This document shows positions 246-62,400 of a DNA stretch of 64,000 nucleotides, piece by piece (positions within the stretch are counted from its first letter, which is position 1; each line of letters opens with the position of its first letter). A program made the position numbers and the translations under genes. The stretch lies in the NCBI RefSeq assembly GCF_054482525.1, contig NZ_CM137006.1; one strand, written 5' to 3'. The notes below the pieces were generated by a model. That model was not told the origin of the DNA, did no database searches, and saw only the letters and a list, made by a program, of their open reading frames with translations.

Positions 246-917
246 TTAGCCTCTGATGATTTTAAGCGCCCATGCGCCACTCATAATGACCAGCAGCACC
301 AGACACATACCAAAAGCCAGCATACAAGCCTGAGCCATATTCATAAAATGCCATGGTGGTAGCAGATACCAGCCTTCAGATTGCTGATACATTTCCACAA
401 ACCACTGTTGCGTGCTGCTCAGTGTGACGCCATCAGGAACGATTGGTGCGTCATAGCCACAATCCCCGGTAGGCTTGAACCAATTTGGTGCCCACTGTGC
501 CAGCGGCAGGTTAAAGGGAAAAGTTGGATCGGTAGAGCAACCCTGTACGCCAAACAGTGAATCGGGATCCGGATTATGTACTGCATGGTGGATATCGTTC
601 AGTTTGAGCGAAAACTTCAGTCCCAAAATGCTGCCGTAAAATGCCATCACGCAGCCAATTAGCTTTAGGATGATGTTCTTTGGGTTGATCGCTGCAACCA
701 ATCCTCCAATAACCATCACAAACATGGCGTAGCGAATGTATACACATTGCTCACAGGGTGCCATGTAGAGATAGATCTGGAAGAAAGAGTGCGCCAGGAT
801 AATTAACGCGCCCATCGCAACGGCCATTAACAACCACAACAAGCGTTGCTCCTGCCATCTGACCAGTGTGTCAACTGGTGATGTGCGAAGATCTTTCCAC
901 ATTCCCTTAATACCCAT
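246..917 (-). CDS. dsbI: DsbB-family membrane thiol oxidase DsbI
   Basis: 223-aa ORF, multi-helix hydrophobic protein with paired Cys; last gene of assT-dsbL-dsbI arrangement. Confidence 0.8.
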
Positions 918-931
918 AGCCTGTTTCCCTG

Positions 932-1600
932 TTATTTGCTTGCTAACTCGCGGATAAGGTCTGCCATTGAGTCAATAGATTTAATACTCTTGGTGTAGAT
1001 CAGGTATTTACCATTGACGACATACGCCGGAACGCCCTGGATTTTTGCAACTTCATAAGAGGCTTTCCATTTTTCCAGCGTTTCTTGAACTGCAGGCTCT
1101 TTCAGCGCGGCTTCAAAATCGGCCTGACTCATACCTGCGGCGTCCAGTCCGGTTTTGATAAAGGCAGCCGGATCTTTACCATCAGACCAGCGTTCTTTTT
1201 TGTCATGATAAGCCGCGTAATAAGCAAACTTGGCTTTCTTAAACTGAGAGTTAGCATCAAATAATGAAATACCTGCTGCTTTATCTTTATTGATCAAGAC
1301 CGCAAAGACTTCGCTTGCTTGTTTGCCGTATTCACCTTTTGTTTCCAGATGGAATGGAGTAAAAGCAACGATATCTTTCACTTTTTCCGATACCGGACCG
1401 GTAACCGCTTTGTCGTACTTGTAACAGAACGGGCAGGCGTAGCTGAATACCTTAATCAGCGTTTTGTCTGCATTCGGAATAGGTTTTTCCAGAACCATGT
1501 AATCCGTGCCTTCGGTAAATGCAGAAGCGGTAAATGAAACAGCCAAAGCTGCGGTAAGCAGTATGCTTTTAAATAGTGATGAGATCCCTAATTTCGACAT
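932..1600 (-). CDS. dsbL: Periplasmic thiol:disulfide oxidoreductase DsbL (DsbA-like)
   Basis: 222-aa ORF with signal peptide and CPFC active-site motif ([11 protein letters not shown]). Confidence 0.85.
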
Positions 1601-1617: not shown

Positions 1618-3414
1618 TTATTTGAACATCTGTTGTGGACGGACTAACAATGCACGATAGTGAGTCTGATTGGGTTTATCTGACAGCACGTCGATTTCCA
1701 CTTTCACTTCTTTGGTTTTGTAATCGATTTCGTTCAACTTACCGACGGTTGGCTGCCCGACATCGAACAAATGAATAGAACCACCGAAGCCAAACATGGT
1801 GTTACGGTCGGCTTGATATTCAATGATGGAGGTGATTGGGCTATAGAAATCGTAGCCACGTTCTTTACCGTATTCCCACACTTGCTGAACGGTGCCTTTC
1901 TTCTCATCAATCTTATATTCCACAAAGCGGGAGTATTTCATGGTTGGTAAGGCAGGTTGTTCCAGATGACGCCCATCGCCATTATCAAAAATGGTGAGCG
2001 TTCCTTTGCTGGAAATCCAGGCGGTATGCTGGGTGTAGGTAAAGTCGAAGTCTGAGTTTTCGCACAGGCCATTTTCGTTACAGGTAATTGGCTTACCGTT
2101 AGCATCAACCGGTTTCAGCAGCTTGCTGGCCAGCGGTTTTTCCCAACCTTTAGAGGGCGCAAGGATCCATTTCACTTGCTTATCACGACCAATCTTCACA
2201 ACACCCTGGTGACGAGAAGAGAGAATAATTGAGTCATCTTTTGCGTCATAAGCGATGGAATTAACGTGCGCCCAGTTACGGCCTGGCCCTACACCCAGAG
2301 CGTCGCCGAACGGTGTATCTGGTTCCAGTTTTGCCTGTTGTCCTGCATGGGCAAGGTCAACGTTAACGCAAACTGCACCTGCATCCAGCGCGCCGAGCAG
2401 TGCATCGCGTTTCGGATCGAGGATCTTCGTCAGATCCCATACATCGACAACGCGACCAGATTTATCGACTTCGAGGATATGGTCACGAATGGTGGTGACG
2501 TGTACGCCGTCATCGCGACGGTAATTGCTCTTACCTACGCGCAACAATACTGTGCCATTTGGCGTCTCAATGGATTCATGAGTAGCGTCAGCAAATCCGC
2601 GCGGTAGTTTGTGATCTTCGAGCACCTGCCCCATCATGTCGAACTCGTACCAGTGCTGACCTTGTACAGCGGTAAAGGTGCCGCGTGGCGTTTCGCGGAT
2701 ACCCATCAGATAACCACGCTTGTTGATATCGCGGTCACGACCATCGTAGAAAGTGTCTTGATCCAGCCACCAGCGGTATTCACCTTCGGTATCGACGATG
2801 AAAGTAAAGGGCGCGATATCAAAAGGGAGTGCGCCAGTTGCCGGACCCGCATCAAGGATACCGGCATTTTTATCTTTCTCACCATGCCAGTGGAGATCGG
2901 AACCTTGGGCGGTAAAGGTGTGGGTATTAACCAGATAGAGGCGATCTTCAAAACCTGGCGCGACTTTAACGACTTTGGTTTGCTGTAGGTCGGAGATGGA
3001 GCGGTTATCCATGTAATTGTTGACGATGGCCGAAGTGTGCACCACATAATCATCTTTCATGACCTTGCCGTTTTCTTTCCACTCAACGGTCACTTTGTTA
3101 GCAAATTTCTGATAAAGACCAAAAATCGGTACACCATCGTAAGTTTTTAGTGATTCCTGACCCACGGGATAGCTGATTTCTACGCCTTTTTCGCCCTTCC
3201 CATGGACGGTAACTTTGACGTCAGAAATAACATGGCTATCTAAGTCAACCAAAGCGGTCAGTGGTGCATTGCCGTAGGGATCGACAATGACCGCACCCAG
3301 TTGCCCGGCAGGCGGCGCTGGTTTAAAACCCGCAGCCATCACCCCCGATGCTGACAAACCCAGGGTTATCGCCACAGTTCCGGCTACGAGTGTTTTTCTA
3401 TATTTATCAAACAT
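1618..3414 (-). CDS. assT: Periplasmic arylsulfate sulfotransferase
   Basis: 598-aa ORF with signal peptide; sequence recognised as ASST family; operon with dsbL/dsbI. Confidence 0.85.
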   Translation of the reverse strand: MFDKYRKTLVAGTVAITLGLSASGVMAAGFKPAPPAGQLGAVIVDPYGNAPLTALVDLDSHVISDVKVTVHGKGEKGVEISYPVGQESLKTYDGVPIFGLYQKFANKVTVEWKENGKVMKDDYVVHTSAIVNNYMDNRSISDLQQTKVVKVAPGFEDRLYLVNTHTFTAQGSDLHWHGEKDKNAGILDAGPATGALPFDIAPFTFIVDTEGEYRWWLDQDTFYDGRDRDINKRGYLMGIRETPRGTFTAVQGQHWYEFDMMGQVLEDHKLPRGFADATHESIETPNGTVLLRVGKSNYRRDDGVHVTTIRDHILEVDKSGRVVDVWDLTKILDPKRDALLGALDAGAVCVNVDLAHAGQQAKLEPDTPFGDALGVGPGRNWAHVNSIAYDAKDDSIILSSRHQGVVKIGRDKQVKWILAPSKGWEKPLASKLLKPVDANGKPITCNENGLCENSDFDFTYTQHTAWISSKGTLTIFDNGDGRHLEQPALPTMKYSRFVEYKIDEKKGTVQQVWEYGKERGYDFYSPITSIIEYQADRNTMFGFGGSIHLFDVGQPTVGKLNEIDYKTKEVKVEIDVLSDKPNQTHYRALLVRPQQMFK

Positions 3415-3864
3415 GGATATATCTCCTTATATAACGCAAATATATAATAATGATGAATATCGACTGTTGAGAGGGTGCTAATAAATTCGTTACGTGAATA
3501 TAAATATTAATTCAATAAAGAGTGAGAATGCTTTTGTGTTTCTTTTAAATATGTTGTTATTCGGTGAAACAAATATTTATGTTTAATGGATAGTAGGTGG
3601 GCAATATATCAATCACAATGTTCAATACTGTGTAGTGTGATCCCTGCAACATTGTTTTTTAATTATTAAATTTAAATCTGGTGAGATAAAAGTAAAGTAT
3701 TTAAATAATATCAAATAGTTATGTTGTGATGTATTCATTTACTTTAATTACAATATCGCTTGCATATGACGATTTAACATTAAATTGAGTATTAATGTTA
3801 AATAAAGGTTGGATATGTATGCGTTTATATATTGATGGGAATTATGAATGGTGGATTATAAGAG

Positions 3865-3887
3865 ATTGCCCCGCTTATCGGGGCAAT
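3865..3887. terminator. Hairpin attgccccg-ctta-tcggggcaat just downstream of ygiC
   Basis: Perfect 9-bp inverted repeat immediately 3' of the ygiC stop. Confidence 0.5.
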
Positions 3888-3898
3888 ATTAAGCTGTA

Positions 3899-5059
3899 TT
3901 ACTCAACAAAAATATGCGGATAAAACCGAGACATATCCTGGGTGATCAATGCACGGTCTTCACGAATGCCAATTCCGGCAGGTTGATCGTTCACCAGCCA
4001 GCTACCAATCAGCATATAGCTGTCGCCGAATTTCGGTAACGGGTGGAATTGCTGAACAATCATCCCTTCTTCGCCATACGGACCTTCCGCTGCTTCAATG
4101 GTTTTGCCGTTCTCAATGATCGACACGTTTGCGCCTTCACGGGAGAAGATCGGTTTAACCACATATTTTTCCATTTGCGGATGATCATCTTCCGCAAAAT
4201 AAGCGGGCAGCAGGTTCGGGTGATTCGGGAACATCTCCCACAGTAGCGGTAGAAGCGCTTTGTTGGAGATAATGCTCTTCCACGCCGGTTCCAGCCAGCG
4301 TACGCCTGCATCCTCCAGCTTGGTGGAGAACATCTCACGCAACATAAATTCCCACGGATACAGCTTGAACAGGTTGGAAATCACCTGATCCTGTAAATCC
4401 GTGAACTGACCTTTTTCACCTAACCCGATATCGTCGATGTAGAGGAACTCGGTAGCGATTTCAGCTTCCGTCGCGCAGTCCTGCAAATACTGAATGGTTC
4501 CGCGATCTTCCACCGTGTCGCGACAGCAGGTGAGATGCAGCAACTGGAAGCCATACTGTTCACGCAGCTCAACGAAGCGATCGATCAGCTTTTCTTGCAA
4601 ACTGTTAAACTGGTCGCTGCCCTCCGGCAAGTTACCGGCGTTAAGCTGATCTTCCAGCCAGATCCACTGAAAGAACGCCGCCTCGTATAGTGACGTTGGC
4701 GTATCGGCGTTATTTTCCAGAAGTTTAGGTTCGCCAGTGCCATCCCACGCCAGATCAAGACGCGAATAAAGCGATGGCTGGTGCGTCAGCCATGACTGGC
4801 GCACAAAACTCCAGGTGTGTTTTGGTATGCGGAATTTGGTCATCAGCTCATCGCTGGCGATCACTTTTTCCACCACTTTCAGGCACATCTGGTGCAGTTC
4901 GGCGGTGACTTCTTCCAGCTTTTCAACCTGAGCGAGGGTCAACTTGTAGTAAGCATCTTCACACCAGTACGGCTCGCCGTACATGGTGTGAAAATTGAAA
5001 CCGTATTCGTGGGCTTTTTCGCGCCAGTCCGGGCGCTCGGTAATACTGACTCTTTCCAT
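3899..5059 (-). CDS. ygiC: Glutathionylspermidine synthase-like ATP-grasp protein YgiC
   Basis: 386-aa ORF; homologous to synthetase half of Gss; tolC-ygiB-ygiC order. Confidence 0.9.
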
Positions 5060-12039: not shown

Positions 12040-14181
12040 TCAAAATTCCATTTTCACCGTGAATTGCACTTCACGCGGATCGCCAATCTGATTCCCCAGA
12101 TTATTTGTGGCGATGGAAGAGGTGTAATACGTTTTATCAAACAGGTTTTTGACGTTTAATTGCAGTGTGACCGGATACTGCAATTTCATTTTGTATGCAG
12201 CGAAGGCATCGGCAACGAAATAGCCTGGCAGATAATAGTCAGCCCCATTGGTTGCCGAACGACGGCTTACGCCATGTCCACCACCGCCAAACGTCAGTGT
12301 GTTATTGCCAGGCATGTTATGAATGTCATAAGTCAGGAATAGCGAACCGGTATGACGAGGAACATTCGGCAATGGTTTCCCTGCATAATCAGGATCCTCC
12401 AGAACCTTAGCATCGGTATAGCCGTAGCTGGCAATGATATTAATGTTTTCAGTTAATGCTCCCGCAAGGTCGACTTCTACCCCTCTTGAACGAACACGGC
12501 CTGCCGTTTTGGCAATGCTTTCATCACCAATACTTTCGGTATACAACACGTTACGTTTATGGATATCAAACAGCGCAATATCTGCGGTGATACCATCGAA
12601 TAGCTCGAATTTTGCCCCGACTTCGTAAGCATTAGATGATTCCGGTGGAAGATCGCCAATGTAGCTGGCAATTGACGACTGCGGCATAAATGTTTGCGAA
12701 TAATTGGCAAATAAGGATACCGATGGCGTCAGTTTGTAGACTAACCCCAGTTTGGGCGTCCATTGTTCATCGCGGCTGTCAGTATTGACATTAAAAGGAC
12801 GGCCTTTACCCGCATACTGCGTGTAATACTGATAGCGGATCCCGGCGACGGCAATCCAGTTATCGGTCAGATAGAGCGCGTCCTGTGCATACGCTGAGTA
12901 GCTCTCCTGTTTGATCGTCTGATCACTGTCCGACGCCGAAACCGTTGTGCATTTGCTGGTATTGCCATAAACGGGGTTGTAGATATTGAAATCTTTAGCG
13001 TTTTTACAGCGAATCATATCTGTGCGCAGAAGATCATAATATTCATATGACACCCCACCCAGAATCTCATTATAGAACCCAGCAATATCAGCATTCCCTT
13101 GCAGATCCGCACGAGTAGAATGCATACGCTGGGTAGATCCCTGAGTTGCATCAACACGCCGTGTCAGCGTTCCTGTCGTTGCATCATACGCGGTAACGCG
13201 AGCCTGATTGTCGCTGTATTTATCCTGGCTGTAGCTGTAATCAAAGCGCGCTGTCCACTGGCTATTGAGATGATATTCTGCGTTGAGTTGCGCCAGATCG
13301 GACTGACCATCTGTAATATTAAACGGTTCGTCAAAACGTATTTTTCGATCAACGTTTACGGGCTGTTTCGTCGTAAGGTCGAAAATCGTTCCACGATCGA
13401 ACGGAGTTTTATAGTCCCGATGGGAATAGAGCATGGTTACTGTTGCATTATCACCAAACCAGGTGAGTGACGGGGCAATAAATGTACTGCGCTCTTTACC
13501 GAAGTTTCGCCAGTAATCTTCATCCTGCACTTCCCCCGTCAGGCGGTATGCCAGCTGAGTGCCTTCAATGGGACCTGTGATATCAAGTTGCCCAGTGCCT
13601 CCGCCAAAACTGGAGGACGTGGCTGAGACAGAACCATGGAATGTTTTTTCCGGGCGCTTGGTCACGACGTTAATCAATCCACCAGGATCGAGAATGCCAT
13701 ACAGCGTGGAGGCCGGACCTTTTAGCACTTCCACACGTTCTGTGGCGGCGTTGAAACTGCGAGGAAGTACAGTTCGCAGGCCGTTGGTCATGATGGAGCC
13801 ATCCCGGTTTGCGCCAAACCCACGGCGTACAAAAGCATCCTGAGTCCCGCCTAATGTATTGGTCTGTACCACGTTACTGACGTTATAAAGCGCCTCATCC
13901 AGCGTTGTCGCATTCTGGTTTTCCAGAACCTGATCGCTAACCGTATTGACCACCTGCGGGATATCCAGCATCGGCATATCGGTTAATGTCGCCGTAGAGG
14001 TGCTCAGAGGTTGATAACCATCGGTTGCCTCAGTTGCGGTATTTGCATCTGCTGTAACAGTGATTGTTTCGCCATCTTTGGTCGTTACAGAGTCTGTTGC
14101 ATGAATCATCGGTGCCGCAAAAAGCAGTGAAAAGAGCGCCCGACCTTTGAGTCCTGAGAATGAAGGTGTGAACATAGCCAT
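12040..14181 (-). CDS. TonB-dependent outer membrane siderophore receptor (Fit-like, FitA?)
   Basis: 713-aa ORF with signal peptide, plug region and C-terminal terminal-Phe beta-barrel; divergent from ABC importer operon. Confidence 0.85.
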   Translation of the reverse strand: MAMFTPSFSGLKGRALFSLLFAAPMIHATDSVTTKDGETITVTADANTATEATDGYQPLSTSTATLTDMPMLDIPQVVNTVSDQVLENQNATTLDEALYNVSNVVQTNTLGGTQDAFVRRGFGANRDGSIMTNGLRTVLPRSFNAATERVEVLKGPASTLYGILDPGGLINVVTKRPEKTFHGSVSATSSSFGGGTGQLDITGPIEGTQLAYRLTGEVQDEDYWRNFGKERSTFIAPSLTWFGDNATVTMLYSHRDYKTPFDRGTIFDLTTKQPVNVDRKIRFDEPFNITDGQSDLAQLNAEYHLNSQWTARFDYSYSQDKYSDNQARVTAYDATTGTLTRRVDATQGSTQRMHSTRADLQGNADIAGFYNEILGGVSYEYYDLLRTDMIRCKNAKDFNIYNPVYGNTSKCTTVSASDSDQTIKQESYSAYAQDALYLTDNWIAVAGIRYQYYTQYAGKGRPFNVNTDSRDEQWTPKLGLVYKLTPSVSLFANYSQTFMPQSSIASYIGDLPPESSNAYEVGAKFELFDGITADIALFDIHKRNVLYTESIGDESIAKTAGRVRSRGVEVDLAGALTENINIIASYGYTDAKVLEDPDYAGKPLPNVPRHTGSLFLTYDIHNMPGNNTLTFGGGGHGVSRRSATNGADYYLPGYFVADAFAAYKMKLQYPVTLQLNVKNLFDKTYYTSSIATNNLGNQIGDPREVQFTVKMEF

Positions 14182-14278
14182 TTAGTCTGTTATCCCAAAA
14201 ACTCGCGGATTGTCGCGAGTGAAAATTGTTTCTTATTGCTCACTAAGCACTATCCGTTTGTTATTTCACCATCGGATA

Positions 14279-14302
14279 TGTAATTGAGAATCATTCAATC
14301 AT
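14279..14302. promoter_or_regulatory. Candidate Fur box in divergent promoter region
   Basis: taattgagaatcattcaatc resembles GATAATGATAATCATTATC (about 13/19 by eye); AT-rich divergent region. Confidence 0.3.
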
Positions 14303-14554
14303 GCGGTGATGTAGTAGTAAATGAGAAATAACAAAAAATTGCTACATGTGTTTTTATGAGAGGTTAATGCAATTCAATTGATGGTAATTTATTAATATTT
14401 AATGGTTTTATTTTTATCTTTAAAAATATTTCACCTGTTATTTACCTTGTTTTTGTGTGGCTTTTAACTGCTTGACTACTACATTTTGTGGCGTCAAACT
14501 CTCAAAGGAGAATGAGTTTTATTTTTGTTTGTCTTTGATTAAGTTGGCGTACAC

Positions 14555-15364
14555 GTGGCACATAACGCAAAAGGGCAGGGGCTGATCCTCGACAATGTTT
14601 CTGCCGGGTATCACAAGAAAATCATTGTTGATGGTGTTTCTTTCTCCGTTCCCACAGAAAAAATGACCGTTCTGGTTGGGGCAAACGGCTGTGGAAAGTC
14701 GACGTTGCTCAGCACCATTGCACGTATCTTGCAACCCATGGGCGGTTCGATATTGCTGGATGGTAAAGCGATTCACGAGCAACCAACGAAAGCGTTATCC
14801 CGTAGACTTGGGATCTTGCCGCAGTCGCCATTATTGCCGGAGGGCTTAACCGTTTATGAACTGGTGTCGCGTGGGCGTTTTCCCTGGCAGAATTTCATTC
14901 GTCAATGGAGCGACGCCGATGAGCTGGCGGTAGAAGAGGCCCTGAAATTAACGGGTACGCAGGAGTTTGCACATTTACCTGTTGAAAAACTCTCTGGTGG
15001 GCAGCGCCAGCGTTGCTGGATTGCGATGGTGTTGGCGCAAAAGACGCCTTATATCCTGCTGGATGAACCCACAACCTGGCTTGATTTACGTTATCAGGTT
15101 GAAATTCTTGAGTTATTACATGATTTAACACGTCATCACGGGCGTACAGTCGTCGTGGTGTTGCATGATCTGAATTTTGCCGTCAATTATGGCGATACGT
15201 TGATATTTTTACGCCAGGGGAAAGTGGTGCGTGTGTTGAATGAGGGGGAGCATTGCACGCCTGAGCTGGTAAAAGCGGTCTTTGACGTTGATGTTCACGC
15301 ATCAATAAATCCTCTGACGGGAAAGCCGTTCTTCATGCCGTTTCGTGGTGTAGAAAAAGTATGA
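14555..15364 (+). CDS. Iron-siderophore ABC transporter ATP-binding protein (FhuC/FecE-like)
   Basis: 269-aa ORF with Walker A GANGCGKST and LSGGQRQR signature; GTG start forced by in-frame stop at 14540. Confidence 0.85.
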   Translation: MAHNAKGQGLILDNVSAGYHKKIIVDGVSFSVPTEKMTVLVGANGCGKSTLLSTIARILQPMGGSILLDGKAIHEQPTKALSRRLGILPQSPLLPEGLTVYELVSRGRFPWQNFIRQWSDADELAVEEALKLTGTQEFAHLPVEKLSGGQRQRCWIAMVLAQKTPYILLDEPTTWLDLRYQVEILELLHDLTRHHGRTVVVVLHDLNFAVNYGDTLIFLRQGKVVRVLNEGEHCTPELVKAVFDVDVHASINPLTGKPFFMPFRGVEKV

Positions 15365-59166: not shown

Positions 59167-60914
59167 GCCAGGGATTCCTGCACATTAAGACTGGCAGCAT
59201 AAGCCTTCTGATAACGTTTTTTCGCTTCCGCACGGGCAGGCTTGCCGGAGGACGTTCGGGGAATACTGTGGGGCGGCAACAGATCGATAGCCGCGGTCAC
59301 GCCAAATTCGCTTTGGATCCGTGCCGCCAGCGCGTGGATAAGCTGCCCGCGACGTTCTTCGTCGCTGATCCGACACTGGATCTGCAAAATGATTTTTTCC
59401 TGGGCGGTAACAAAAGCAATCGCATCGCCAGAATGAATTTCCGGTTCCTGTTCCGCTATATATTCAATATCCTGCGGCCAGATATTACGGCCACGAATAA
59501 TAATCAGATCTTTAATGCGTCCGGTGACATACAGATAACCGTCCAGCAGATAACCGAGGTCGCCGGTGTCTAACCAGCCCGTCGCGGCAATCTCGTCTTG
59601 CGAAACCTGGTCGCCAAAGTAACCGCTCATCAGACTGGGACCGGAGATGCAAATATGGCCTACCACACGTTCCGCGACCGGCATACCTGCTTCATTGCGG
59701 ATTTCAATACCATGTTCCGGCAACGCTTTGCCGCAGTTGACGAAAGTCGATACGGCGCGTGTCTCTGCACCCGGCGCGACGGCTTTACCCTGATATTCGA
59801 GGATGTCGCGATCCACTTCGTTAACCACAACCCCGGAGGCTTCATCAGAGAAGCTGACAGCCAGCGCATTTTCTGCCAGTCCGTAGCACGGCATGAAAGT
59901 TTTATCGTCAAAGTTGACCTGACGGAAACATTCAGCGAATTGATGGAGTTGTTCTGCGGAGATGGGTTCTGCACCAATACCAGCGACGCGCCAGCAGGAA
60001 AGATCCAGTTCAGCGAGATCTTTTTCATTCACGCGGCGCTGGCACAATTCATAGCCAAACGGCGGCGCAACGGAAACGGTGCCGCGATTTTTACTGATCA
60101 ATTTAAGCCATTGCAGAGGACGCATGGCAAAATCCTGAGTGCGCAAATAATCTACTGAGAGTTGCGTGGCGACGGGGGTCAGGAGAAAGCCGACCAGTCC
60201 CATATCATGGTAGAAAGGCAGCCAGGAGACGCAGCGGTCGCCAGGGCGTAATTTTATGCCATCGTGGCTTATAGCACGTAGATTAGCCATCACTTCGCGA
60301 TGGGTGATAATGACGCCACGGGGAAAACGGGTGCTGCCGGAGGTGTACTGGAGGTAGGCGATATCGTTCGGAACTGGACGCTGGAGCGCAACATCGGCTT
60401 CCGGTAATGCCTTAAACCAGGCGTGGCTTAAAACATGTAATTCGGGGTTGTTGTTATGCGTCGCGGCATTGACCAGTGGCAACCACTCATCACCAGTGAT
60501 AATGGCTGCGGGCTGGCAACTTGCCAGTAAACCCTGCAGCTTGGCGCTCCAGGAATCCCGCTGACCGACGCCCATGGGAATCGCCAACGGGACGGCGACT
60601 AAGCCGGCATACTGGCAGGCAAAAAAAGCCTCTACGAACCCGCTACTGGTTTCGGCAATCAGTGCCACGCGATCGCCTTTTTTCAGGTTTAGCGATAACA
60701 ACCGCTTCGCACCAGCTTCGGCACGCGCTTTTAACGTCTGATATTCCAGTTGATCTTCAAGTTGGCAACGTCTGTCATAAAAATTCATTCCAGCGCTACT
60801 CAGAGCGGCATAGTCCAAAGCATCAACCAGCGTTGGAAAATCGGCATAGCGCATAGGTAGGGAATGCGTAAAGATTTTATTAGACATATACACCACGAAA
60901 AAATTGGATATCAA
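59163..60914 (-). CDS. Fatty acyl-AMP ligase / acyl-CoA synthetase family (start uncertain: M1 at 60914 or M10 at 60887)
   Basis: 583-aa ORF with AMP-binding core YTSGSTRFPRG and C-terminal SSGK; resembles FAAL enzymes. Confidence 0.8.
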   Translation of the reverse strand: MISNFFVVYMSNKIFTHSLPMRYADFPTLVDALDYAALSSAGMNFYDRRCQLEDQLEYQTLKARAEAGAKRLLSLNLKKGDRVALIAETSSGFVEAFFACQYAGLVAVPLAIPMGVGQRDSWSAKLQGLLASCQPAAIITGDEWLPLVNAATHNNNPELHVLSHAWFKALPEADVALQRPVPNDIAYLQYTSGSTRFPRGVIITHREVMANLRAISHDGIKLRPGDRCVSWLPFYHDMGLVGFLLTPVATQLSVDYLRTQDFAMRPLQWLKLISKNRGTVSVAPPFGYELCQRRVNEKDLAELDLSCWRVAGIGAEPISAEQLHQFAECFRQVNFDDKTFMPCYGLAENALAVSFSDEASGVVVNEVDRDILEYQGKAVAPGAETRAVSTFVNCGKALPEHGIEIRNEAGMPVAERVVGHICISGPSLMSGYFGDQVSQDEIAATGWLDTGDLGYLLDGYLYVTGRIKDLIIIRGRNIWPQDIEYIAEQEPEIHSGDAIAFVTAQEKIILQIQCRISDEERRGQLIHALAARIQSEFGVTAAIDLLPPHSIPRTSSGKPARAEAKKRYQKAYAASLNVQESLA

Positions 60915-61257
60915 AAATAAAATGACAATAATGCGGTGGATTATATAGGCATAAAAGATAAATGAGATAGTATTTTCATCAGTGTGAAAATGAACATTGA
61001 TTTAAATAATGAATTTGAGTTTTTTGTTTTTATTGTGAATGATATTTAATTTATGAATATATTAAGAAGGAGCCTTGTCCGGTCGCCTTAAATCGACAAA
61101 AGGCATTGTGGCGCTTCTGTGTAGTCTCTGACCTTATCGTAATCATTAATAAATACTATTTATTCGTCGTTTGTATTCATTGGGTTGATTATTAAGGTGC
61201 CGTTCGTTGCTGTTGCAACCTGTTTGTCACCGTTAATTATTTGTTACCCACAGAACT

Positions 61258-62400
61258 ATGGAATGCGATCTGCTGATGATTAAAATTGAAAAAGTAATTA
61301 ATAAAAATGACCTTAAGGCATTTATCGCTTTTCCGTCATCACTTTATCCCGACGATCCAAACTGGATACCCCCTTTATTCATTGAACGCAACGAGCATTT
61401 GTCTGCGAAAAATCCGGGGACGGACCATATCATCTGGCAGGCGTGGGTGGCAAAAAAAGCGGGGCAGATAGTTGGGCGTATTACCGCGCAAATAGATACC
61501 TTGCACCGCGAGCGTTACGGCAAAGATACCGGTCATTTCGGCATGATTGACGCCATTGATGATCCGCAGGTTTTTGCCGCGTTGTTTGGCGCAGCGGAAG
61601 CGTGGTTGAAGTCACAAGGTGCAAGTAAGATCAGCGGGCCTTTCAGCCTGAATATCAATCAGGAAAGCGGATTACTGATTGAAGGTTTTGACACTCCGCC
61701 CTGTGCGATGATGCCACACGGCAAACCGTGGTATGCCGCGCATATTGAACAACTGGGTTATCACAAAGGCATTGATTTACTGGCGTGGTGGATGCAGCGA
61801 ACCGATCTCACTTTCTCTCCGGCGCTAAAAAAACTGATGGATCAGGTGCGCAAAAAGGTGACCATTCGCTGCATCAATCGTCAGCGGTTTGCCGAAGAGA
61901 TGCAGATCCTGCGTGAGATTTTCAACTCTGGCTGGCAGCACAACTGGGGATTTGTGCCGTTTACCGAACATGAATTCGCGACCATGGGCGATCAACTTAA
62001 ATATCTGGTGCCGGACGATATGATCTATATCGCTGAGATTGATTCTGCACCCTGCGCGTTTATTGTCGGCTTGCCGAACATCAACGAGGCGATTGCCGAT
62101 CTGAACGGATCGCTCTTTCCCTTCGGCTGGGCAAAATTGCTGTGGCGTTTGAAAGTCAGCGGTGTGCGAACTGCGCGAGTACCGCTGATGGGCGTGCGCG
62201 ACGAGTATCAGTTCAGCCGCATCGGCCCGGTGATTGCGCTGTTATTGATTGAAGCCTTACGCGATCCGTTTGCCCGCCGGAAGATCGATGCGCTGGAGAT
62301 GTCATGGATCCTCGAAACCAATACAGGCATGAATAACATGCTGGAACGCATTGGGGCGGAGCCGTACAAGCGTTACCGATTGTATGAAAAGCAAATTTAA
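61258..62400 (+). CDS. yghO: YghO family protein, intact (function unknown; possible N-acyltransferase-like fold)
   Basis: 380-aa ORF recognised as YghO; divergent from ligase operon. Confidence 0.7.
   Translation: MECDLLMIKIEKVINKNDLKAFIAFPSSLYPDDPNWIPPLFIERNEHLSAKNPGTDHIIWQAWVAKKAGQIVGRITAQIDTLHRERYGKDTGHFGMIDAIDDPQVFAALFGAAEAWLKSQGASKISGPFSLNINQESGLLIEGFDTPPCAMMPHGKPWYAAHIEQLGYHKGIDLLAWWMQRTDLTFSPALKKLMDQVRKKVTIRCINRQRFAEEMQILREIFNSGWQHNWGFVPFTEHEFATMGDQLKYLVPDDMIYIAEIDSAPCAFIVGLPNINEAIADLNGSLFPFGWAKLLWRLKVSGVRTARVPLMGVRDEYQFSRIGPVIALLLIEALRDPFARRKIDALEMSWILETNTGMNNMLERIGAEPYKRYRLYEKQI

Follow-up and report, generated by a model that had tools for sequence, protein, structure and literature searches.

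Why is assT, the gene for a periplasmic aryl-sulfate sulfotransferase, separated from its upstream neighbour ygiC by 484 bp of AT-rich DNA? We addressed this question in a 64-kb stretch of Escherichia coli DNA (contig NZ_CM137006.1 of assembly GCF_054482525.1; hereafter, the window), which opens in the tolC-ribB neighbourhood and carries the assT-ygiC intergenic region (IGR) at positions 3415-3898. We consider it probable that this IGR consists of ~440 bp of cis-regulatory region and leader belonging to the assT-dsbL-dsbI operon, plus ~35-45 bp holding the terminator hairpin of ygiC, and that the regulatory part is a promoter region silenced by H-NS and subject to counter-silencing.

The initial annotation had described the gap as devoid of protein genes, very AT-rich and full of repeated TTAAAT and ATATT tracts, and these descriptions held. 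The start of assT and the stop of ygiC bound positions 3415-3898, with no conserved open reading frame (ORF) between them, and RefSeq annotates nothing in the IGR of strain GF131, which is 100% identical and has the same gene layout. The GC content was 27.7% compared to 51.2% for the window, and the 484-bp frame with the lowest GC content in all 64 kb (start 3384, GC 0.260) overlapped the IGR nearly completely. Frames of this length with a GC content of 0.30 or below made up 0.28% of window frames. Among the stretches lacking an ORF of at least 120 aa, the IGR ranked fourth in length, and it was the only one of those four with a GC content below 0.4. TTAAAT occurred nine times on both strands taken together, compared to 2.1 +/- 1.5 times in composition-matched shuffles (P about 0.001), and ATATT 14 times compared to 5.8 (P = 0.007); thus, both tracts exceed what base composition alone gives.

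We compared the IGR with the DNA upstream of assT in relatives, based on 52 loci retrieved through AssT, in which Salmonella was represented by S. enterica arizonae and S. Typhi was not included. Conservation across genera was limited to two stretches, the ribosome-binding region TATATAAGGAGATATATCCATG and a ~75-bp core. A profile of the core (nhmmer) matched upstream of assT in 25 of the 25 Enterobacteriaceae loci, with E-values from 1e-12 to 1e-19, and had no match in the Budviciaceae, Edwardsiella or Campylobacter loci. For Salmonella, the local alignment of the core had z = 9.6, and the nhmmer E-value for S. enterica arizonae was 7e-18. An alignment of 16 Enterobacteriaceae sequences from five genera was gapless within the core, and the Shine-Dalgarno stretch TATATAAGGAGATAT was nearly invariant in the same number of sequences. 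Within E. coli, the IGR exists as two haplotypes, A (that of the window) and B. The features listed below include the predicted promoter within the core, a site that may bind an activator, the three conserved blocks and the putatively insulating hairpin of ygiC.

3415-3898, minus strand: assT-ygiC IGR, non-coding, 484 bp, 27.7% GC
3415-3505, minus strand: block A, proximal leader, 92% identity between the E. coli haplotypes
3415-3583, minus strand: predicted 5' untranslated region of 169 nt, AT-rich and unstructured, if the core promoter is used (start extrapolated from the -10 element)
3423-3428, minus strand: assT Shine-Dalgarno sequence AAGGAG, read from the sequence, 8 nt before the ATG at 3414
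3587-3661, minus strand: conserved core (block B), present upstream of assT in all Enterobacteriaceae loci
3590-3595, minus strand: predicted -10 element TACTAT (TAGTAT in haplotype B), TA..AT columns invariant in 16 sequences
3613-3618, minus strand: predicted -35 element TTGTGA (TTGTTA in haplotype B), at a fixed 17-bp spacer
3636-3651, no strand assigned: CRP-like site TGTGATCCCTGCAACA, matching 8/10 core positions, centred at about -60.5 to -61.5 from the predicted start
3736-3806, no strand assigned: block C, distal block, 86% identity between the haplotypes
3865-3887, minus strand: probable ygiC terminator, 3' hairpin AUUGCCCCG-loop-CGGGGCAAU, starting 11 nt past the ygiC stop codon

The core contains the predicted promoter. 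A weight-matrix scan of the aligned sequences identified just one promoter-like element whose position in the alignment was shared by 16/16 sequences, always with a 17-bp spacer. This element reads TTGTnn-17-TAsTAT in most of the sequences and was among the top six candidates in 14/16; variant hexamers occupied the position in C. braakii, C. amalonaticus and Intestinirhabdus. This conserved sigma-70-type promoter is the most likely origin of transcription, with a predicted start near 3583.

The regulation of the promoter can be approached through its orthologs. The S. Typhi assT-dsbL-dsbI operon is H-NS-repressed, LeuO-activated and dependent on growth conditions, according to the statement in PMC4264507 that cites Gallego-Hernandez 2012. 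The chromosomal assT of uropathogenic E. coli (UPEC) is reported to lack expression in standard culture (PMC7810732), and H-NS filaments form on AT-rich DNA, as stated for strain CFT073 (PMC9765446). Applied to the window, these reports suggest the following model. The continuous 73% AT tract would be DNA of the type on which an H-NS silencing filament forms, and this filament would hold the operon silent during ordinary culture. LeuO or another counter-silencer would lift the repression under specific conditions, by analogy with the S. Typhi ortholog. The core promoter (-35 at 3618-3613, -10 at 3595-3590) would then initiate near 3583 and produce an AT-rich, unstructured leader of 169 nt. The earlier proposal that the gap holds silencer sites is thus the best-supported reading, if indirectly, given the H-NS-repressed S. 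Typhi ortholog, the silent UPEC gene and a core held in common with Salmonella and Citrobacter; the part of it that concerns H-NS occupancy is one that we infer.

The comparison with Salmonella has two sides. The operons are orthologous (AssT is 86% identical to that of S. enterica arizonae), and the regions upstream of assT are both AT-rich, similar in length and equipped with the ~75-bp core and the ribosome-binding region. On the other hand, the upstream neighbour in Salmonella, as in Citrobacter, is a divergent yqiD, whereas it is the ygiC terminator in Escherichia; the Salmonella and E. coli sequences are unalignable outside the core and the ribosome-binding region; and the action of H-NS and LeuO, reported for the former, is for E. 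coli a prediction.

AT-rich promoter regions that are H-NS-silenced and counter-silenced are known in E. coli and Salmonella from bgl, proU, ompS1 and casA. The assT region resembles them in that a long tract of at least 70% AT lies upstream of the leader and reaches into it, that the operon is expressed conditionally and silent in the laboratory, and that an antagonist of the LysR type is known for the assT ortholog. It differs in that occupancy at assT would follow from composition and orthology only. For ompS1 and cas, PMC4264507 mentions H-NS and LeuO as antagonists. The kind of element is not new: it is the H-NS/LeuO-type control region of the Salmonella ortholog, of which the E. coli version is a further member. 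Such control would account for the silence of assT in laboratory culture, and of the dedicated DsbL/DsbI folding pair encoded with it, in extraintestinal pathogenic E. coli.

A second input may come from the CRP-like site near -61, which could add catabolite control. Its GATCACA and TG were invariant across genera, as was its spacing to the -35 element (16 sequences). The lac P1 promoter represents the class I CRP-dependent type, with a site centred near -61.5. The arrangement upstream of assT resembles this type in having a TGTGA-N6-nnACA sequence with one perfect half-site ~61 bp upstream of the predicted start; it differs in that the second half-site is weak (3/5 positions) and the start only predicted.

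Several results weigh against the promoter and silencing model. The core promoter was left uncalled by a general promoter scan, in which it matched 8/12 positions compared to a threshold of nine, and the same scan found fewer promoter-like sites in the region than in shuffles. AT-rich DNA also provides many alternative -10-like hexamers. Matches of the quality of the CRP-like site (8/10) numbered 27 in the window compared to 26.4 expected, i.e., the chance level. Lastly, we found in the literature no transcription-start, chromatin immunoprecipitation or expression results for this E. coli region, and no CRP link to assT. As its match quality is at the chance level, the CRP-like site was rejected as a statistically supported call and kept as a hypothesis that draws on conservation and position.

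The layout of the IGR, as seen in the comparison of the two haplotypes, consists of conserved blocks split by variable segments. The blocks were 92% (A), 90% (B, delimited as 3590-3678 in this comparison) and 86% (C) identical, whereas the segments 3506-3589, 3679-3735 and 3807-3862 were 58-62% identical and contained indels. This heterogeneity was significant (chi-square P = 2e-10), and the pattern suggests spaced protein-binding modules, which in the silencing model would be used by counter-silencers, with LeuO as the candidate by orthology and CRP as a possible addition. The last ~45 nt of block A were also conserved in Citrobacter and Salmonella, and block A contains TCGATATTC, which we take to be a loose match to the H-NS high-affinity motif. 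In block C, ATTTAACATTAA (3772-3783) and TTAATGTTAAAT (3792-3803) form an inverted repeat with perfect 12-bp arms. These arms can be read as a weaker promoter-like pair directed toward assT, with a -35 element TTAACA (3796-3801), an 18-bp spacer and a -10 element TTAAAT (3772-3777). The counterpart of this pair in Citrobacter and Salmonella, TTAACA-18-TAAAAT, was the top-scoring promoter candidate there, and block C may hold a second, distal promoter-like element.

Palindromes were also observed near the -35 element, with which ACAATATT-G-AATATTGT overlaps. In haplotype B and in E. whittamii, the perfect 17-bp palindrome ACAATATTGAATATTGT is located at the window equivalent of 3619-3635, between the CRP-like site and the -35 element and overlapping the latter; the window allele has two mismatches. 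This palindrome is possibly an operator for a dimeric factor.

The only promoter call of the general scan was a plus-strand site at 3681-3709. It is not conserved, since haplotype B has an indel there, and it was rejected.

Not all of the gap belongs to assT. The initial annotation had labelled its whole length as an assT leader; this applies to ~440 bp, and the ~35-45 bp at the other end are attributable to ygiC, whose hairpin has a predicted free energy of -15.4 kcal/mol (z = -3.4). In haplotype B the stem of this hairpin is kept and the loop changed, and in Escherichia sp. MOD1 and in E. albertii its place is taken by hairpins of equal stability but unrelated sequence. The predicted hairpin, whose position is thereby conserved in four lineages, is, judging from these alleles, conserved in function and not in sequence. 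Its tail reads UCUCUUAUAAU in the window, which is below the scan threshold of 5 T in 8, and UUUAUUAUACUU in haplotype B. A terminator scan of the region called no terminator, the U-tract after the hairpin being weak. The hairpin is nevertheless the probable terminator of ygiC and would insulate assT from read-through of the co-oriented tolC-ygiBC genes.

A search of 5426 complete E. coli genomes found the IGR in 1508. It belonged to haplotype A (at least 95% identical to the window) in 1246 of them and to haplotype B (~79% identical) in 262, with none between, and a search using haplotype B as the query produced the mirror image. There were 1510 matching places in total, one of which was on a plasmid record; one genome had two copies. 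In a set of nine strains (type A at loci L001 and L059-L062; type B at loci L002 and L056-L058), IGR divergence was 0.0-3.3% between strains of the same type and 21.6-23.5% between strains of different types. The flanking genes diverged by 0.4-3.6% regardless of the IGR type.

We estimated the genealogy of the haplotypes with a four-taxon test that included two E. coli of different IGR types (the window and ECSC054), E. whittamii and SCPM, a divergent 'E. coli' with 92-95% identity in its genes. The flanking genes had 127 informative sites that grouped the two E. coli and 15 that supported the haplotype grouping. In the IGR, 40 informative sites grouped the window with SCPM and ECSC054 with E. 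whittamii, compared to five for the species grouping (Fisher's exact P = 4e-20 for the contrast). Haplotype A thus grouped with the cryptic-clade strain SCPM, and haplotype B with E. whittamii. Divergence at four-fold sites was 1-10% between the two E. coli strains and 18-32% between species. Because the haplotypes differ by ~40% in the three variable segments, which is above both ranges, their split looks older than the species, or else the IGR has been repeatedly exchanged with breakpoints near the gene boundaries.

Four-fold-site divergence between the window and ECSC054 also varied along the operon. It was 1.0% in dsbL (932-1600), 9.0% in assT (1618-3414) and 9.6% in ygiC. This contrast points to a history of recombination that has left the operon mosaic.

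IGR alleles of one species that are divergent (<90% identity) while flanked by the same two genes have been described as 'switched' IGRs (Oren et al. 2014, in the summary given by the Piggy paper, PMC5890482). The assT IGR resembles them: two alleles (78% identity, i.e., <90%) lie between the same genes in one species, and their genealogy is discordant with that of the flanks. It differs in that the assT alleles are homologous, equal in length and have kept the same functional blocks. As the closest relative of each haplotype belongs to another Escherichia species, the pair looks like an old dimorphism and not like a replacement by foreign DNA. We regard it as a tentative and rather unlikely extension of this result that the haplotypes are ancient, functionally distinct regulatory alleles kept across Escherichia species, either by balancing or niche-specific selection or by repeated recombination limited to the promoter region. 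If this were true, the timing of the operon's release from silencing would vary between strains whose enzymes are identical. The same coding genes combined with promoter regions 22% apart constitute a natural experiment on promoter-region switching in a silenced accessory operon.

How the region arose can be considered in light of its neighbours, which in the window are as follows.

246-917, minus strand: dsbI
932-1600, minus strand: dsbL
1618-3414, minus strand: assT, start codon 3412-3414
3899-5059, minus strand: ygiC, stop codon 3899-3901, followed by ygiB and tolC, also on the minus strand

The assT-dsbL-dsbI operon is located between ygiC and ygiD in four Escherichia lineages besides E. 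coli (E. albertii, E. whittamii, Escherichia sp. MOD1 and the cryptic-clade strain SCPM). In MOD1 and E. albertii, the IGR was 457-464 bp long, compared to 483-484 bp in four lineages. Citrobacter, Salmonella and Intestinirhabdus have ygiC next to ygiD, like K-12, and carry the operon beyond zupT, where it is divergent from yqiD. Pseudocitrobacter has the operon between ygiC and ygiD, together with a yqiD-like ORF divergent from assT. With either upstream neighbour, ygiC or yqiD, the region upstream of assT is AT-rich: its 400 bp had a GC content of 0.23-0.33 in every Enterobacteriaceae locus apart from Intestinirhabdus, where a GC-rich insertion raised it to 0.39.

This distribution brings up a possible, if doubtful, origin: the distal ~90 bp of the IGR (about 3796-3865) would be the decayed remains of the 5' part of a gene resembling yqiD, formerly transcribed divergently from assT. 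The gene orders just described fit this idea, both the divergent yqiD of Citrobacter, Salmonella and Intestinirhabdus, whose start codon lies 394-397 bp from that of assT (C. youngae, S. arizonae), and the yqiD-like ORF between ygiC and assT in Pseudocitrobacter. E. coli itself has an AAGG...ATG 399 bp upstream of the assT ATG, and the best matches of a profile of the yqiD 5' region fall collinearly on block C, with the orientation that the idea requires. The similarity itself, however, was at the level of noise (local alignment P = 0.07-0.95; nhmmer E = 0.26-1.2; z = -0.7 to 0.5 against the yqiD region of E. coli itself), and the would-be ORF ends after six codons, with each allele disrupted in its own way. 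A yqiD remnant would be compatible with the silenced-promoter reading, the gap then owing its length, plausibly, to being a former divergent control region whose partner gene has been lost.

Some further details of yqiD were observed. The yqiD-like ORF of Pseudocitrobacter (74 aa; locus L007, 3419-3643, minus strand; also in L023) overlaps the end of ygiC with its 3' end, and no yqiD match was found after zupT in locus L007. In APEC O1 and SC434 (L059 and L061, positions 1-1020), a fimbrial-like gene is located beside yqiD where other strains have ribB, and the yqiD homologue is annotated merely as a hypothetical protein.

The AT-richness had also been taken to suggest horizontal acquisition of the operon, and in its full form this would make the tract a compositional scar of a recent import of the assT island, without regulatory logic. 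The operon is indeed accessory: it is found with the IGR in 1508 of the 5426 genomes and is absent from K-12, in which an unrelated spacer of 37 bp, with the hairpin ACCGGATGGCnnnnGCCATCCGGT (L003, 4083-4119), lies between ygiC and ygiD. Compared to K-12, the junctions of the operon fall exactly at the stop codons of ygiC and ygiD. The island has a GC content of 45% overall, and that of the third codon positions is lowish in dsbL (0.43). In contrast, the latter was near-native in assT (0.50) and dsbI (0.55), and no integrase, insertion sequence element or tRNA is annotated at the operon borders. Low GC content is confined to the upstream region and has been kept there in most genera along with the conserved blocks, and the four further Escherichia lineages named above have the operon at this site too. 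The tract is therefore not evidence of recent import, being conserved with the operon across genera next to assT and dsbI of ordinary composition and in the absence of annotated mobility genes at the borders, and we consider a mere scar improbable. The AT-rich DNA upstream of assT is better described as an old, conserved regulatory feature than as a mark of recent transfer.

As the adjacency of ygiC and ygiD in K-12 is also the state in Citrobacter and Salmonella, the operon, an accessory one, must have moved within the neighbourhood at some point. Its patchy distribution in E. coli and the location that it shares with those four lineages point to an old polymorphism or to loss, with old transfer and loss looking alike in these data.

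Could the gap instead encode an independent small RNA, or a structured leader RNA such as a riboswitch or thermosensor? Room for a small RNA had been noted in the initial annotation, and the length is sufficient; block A (3415-3505) is also strongly conserved within Escherichia, and the promoter-like pair of block C, being palindrome-based and symmetric, could also fire on the plus strand toward the hairpin at 3865-3887. The covariance models of Rfam, however, gave no match above threshold: in a permissive scan of the region, the best scores were 21.8 bits compared to a gathering threshold of 47 and 21.4 compared to 70, both on the ygiC hairpin. The predicted leader folded no better than shuffles (-18.5 kcal/mol, z = -0.13). 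A compensatory change was found in one of 21 predicted pairs in an alignment of six Escherichia leaders, and the 16-sequence core alignment yielded 0 consensus pairs. The only terminator-like hairpin is that of ygiC, which on the plus strand lacks a U-tract. An RNA gene or structured leader thus appears very improbable, and the idea did not survive this scrutiny.

Small proteins were ruled out as well. For each ORF of at least 18 aa, one or more of six Escherichia alleles had stops or frameshifts. A partial exception was a frame of 22 codons that runs antisense to the assT ribosome-binding site; it stayed open only in alleles in which the underlying DNA is conserved, and not in MOD1 or E. albertii.

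The weakest reading, that the IGR is an unconstrained spacer of accidental length and composition, can point to the three segments that are only 58-62% identical and indel-bearing between haplotypes, and is hardly credible in view of the core conserved across genera, the significant block structure, a within-haplotype diversity (0.2-3.3%) that in general does not exceed the diversity of the flanking genes and a length held at 483-484 bp in four lineages.

A few observations concern the leader of other genera and the rest of the window. C. amalonaticus (locus L015, 3783-3981) and Intestinirhabdus alba (L020, 3838-3981) carry a 140-200-bp repeat-like insertion in the assT leader, downstream of the core promoter, with the ends TAAATAATTCGAnTTGC...TGAAnTATGACGnGTAT; it appears to resemble an ERIC/IRU element. 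As two genera carry it, the assT leader tolerates large insertions. At the opposite end of the operon, the convergent ygiD and dsbI genes are separated by a hairpin of their own at ~209-237 of the window, ACCCGAAGCCAG-AATGA-CTGGCTTCGGGT, to which the hairpin in the K-12 ygiC-ygiD spacer is unrelated. Four more AT-rich, mostly ORF-free stretches were detected in the window, at ~60864-61347 (GC 0.31), ~54218-54701 (0.33), ~14159-14642 (0.35) and ~56582-57065 (0.36), and these may be H-NS-type regulatory regions too.

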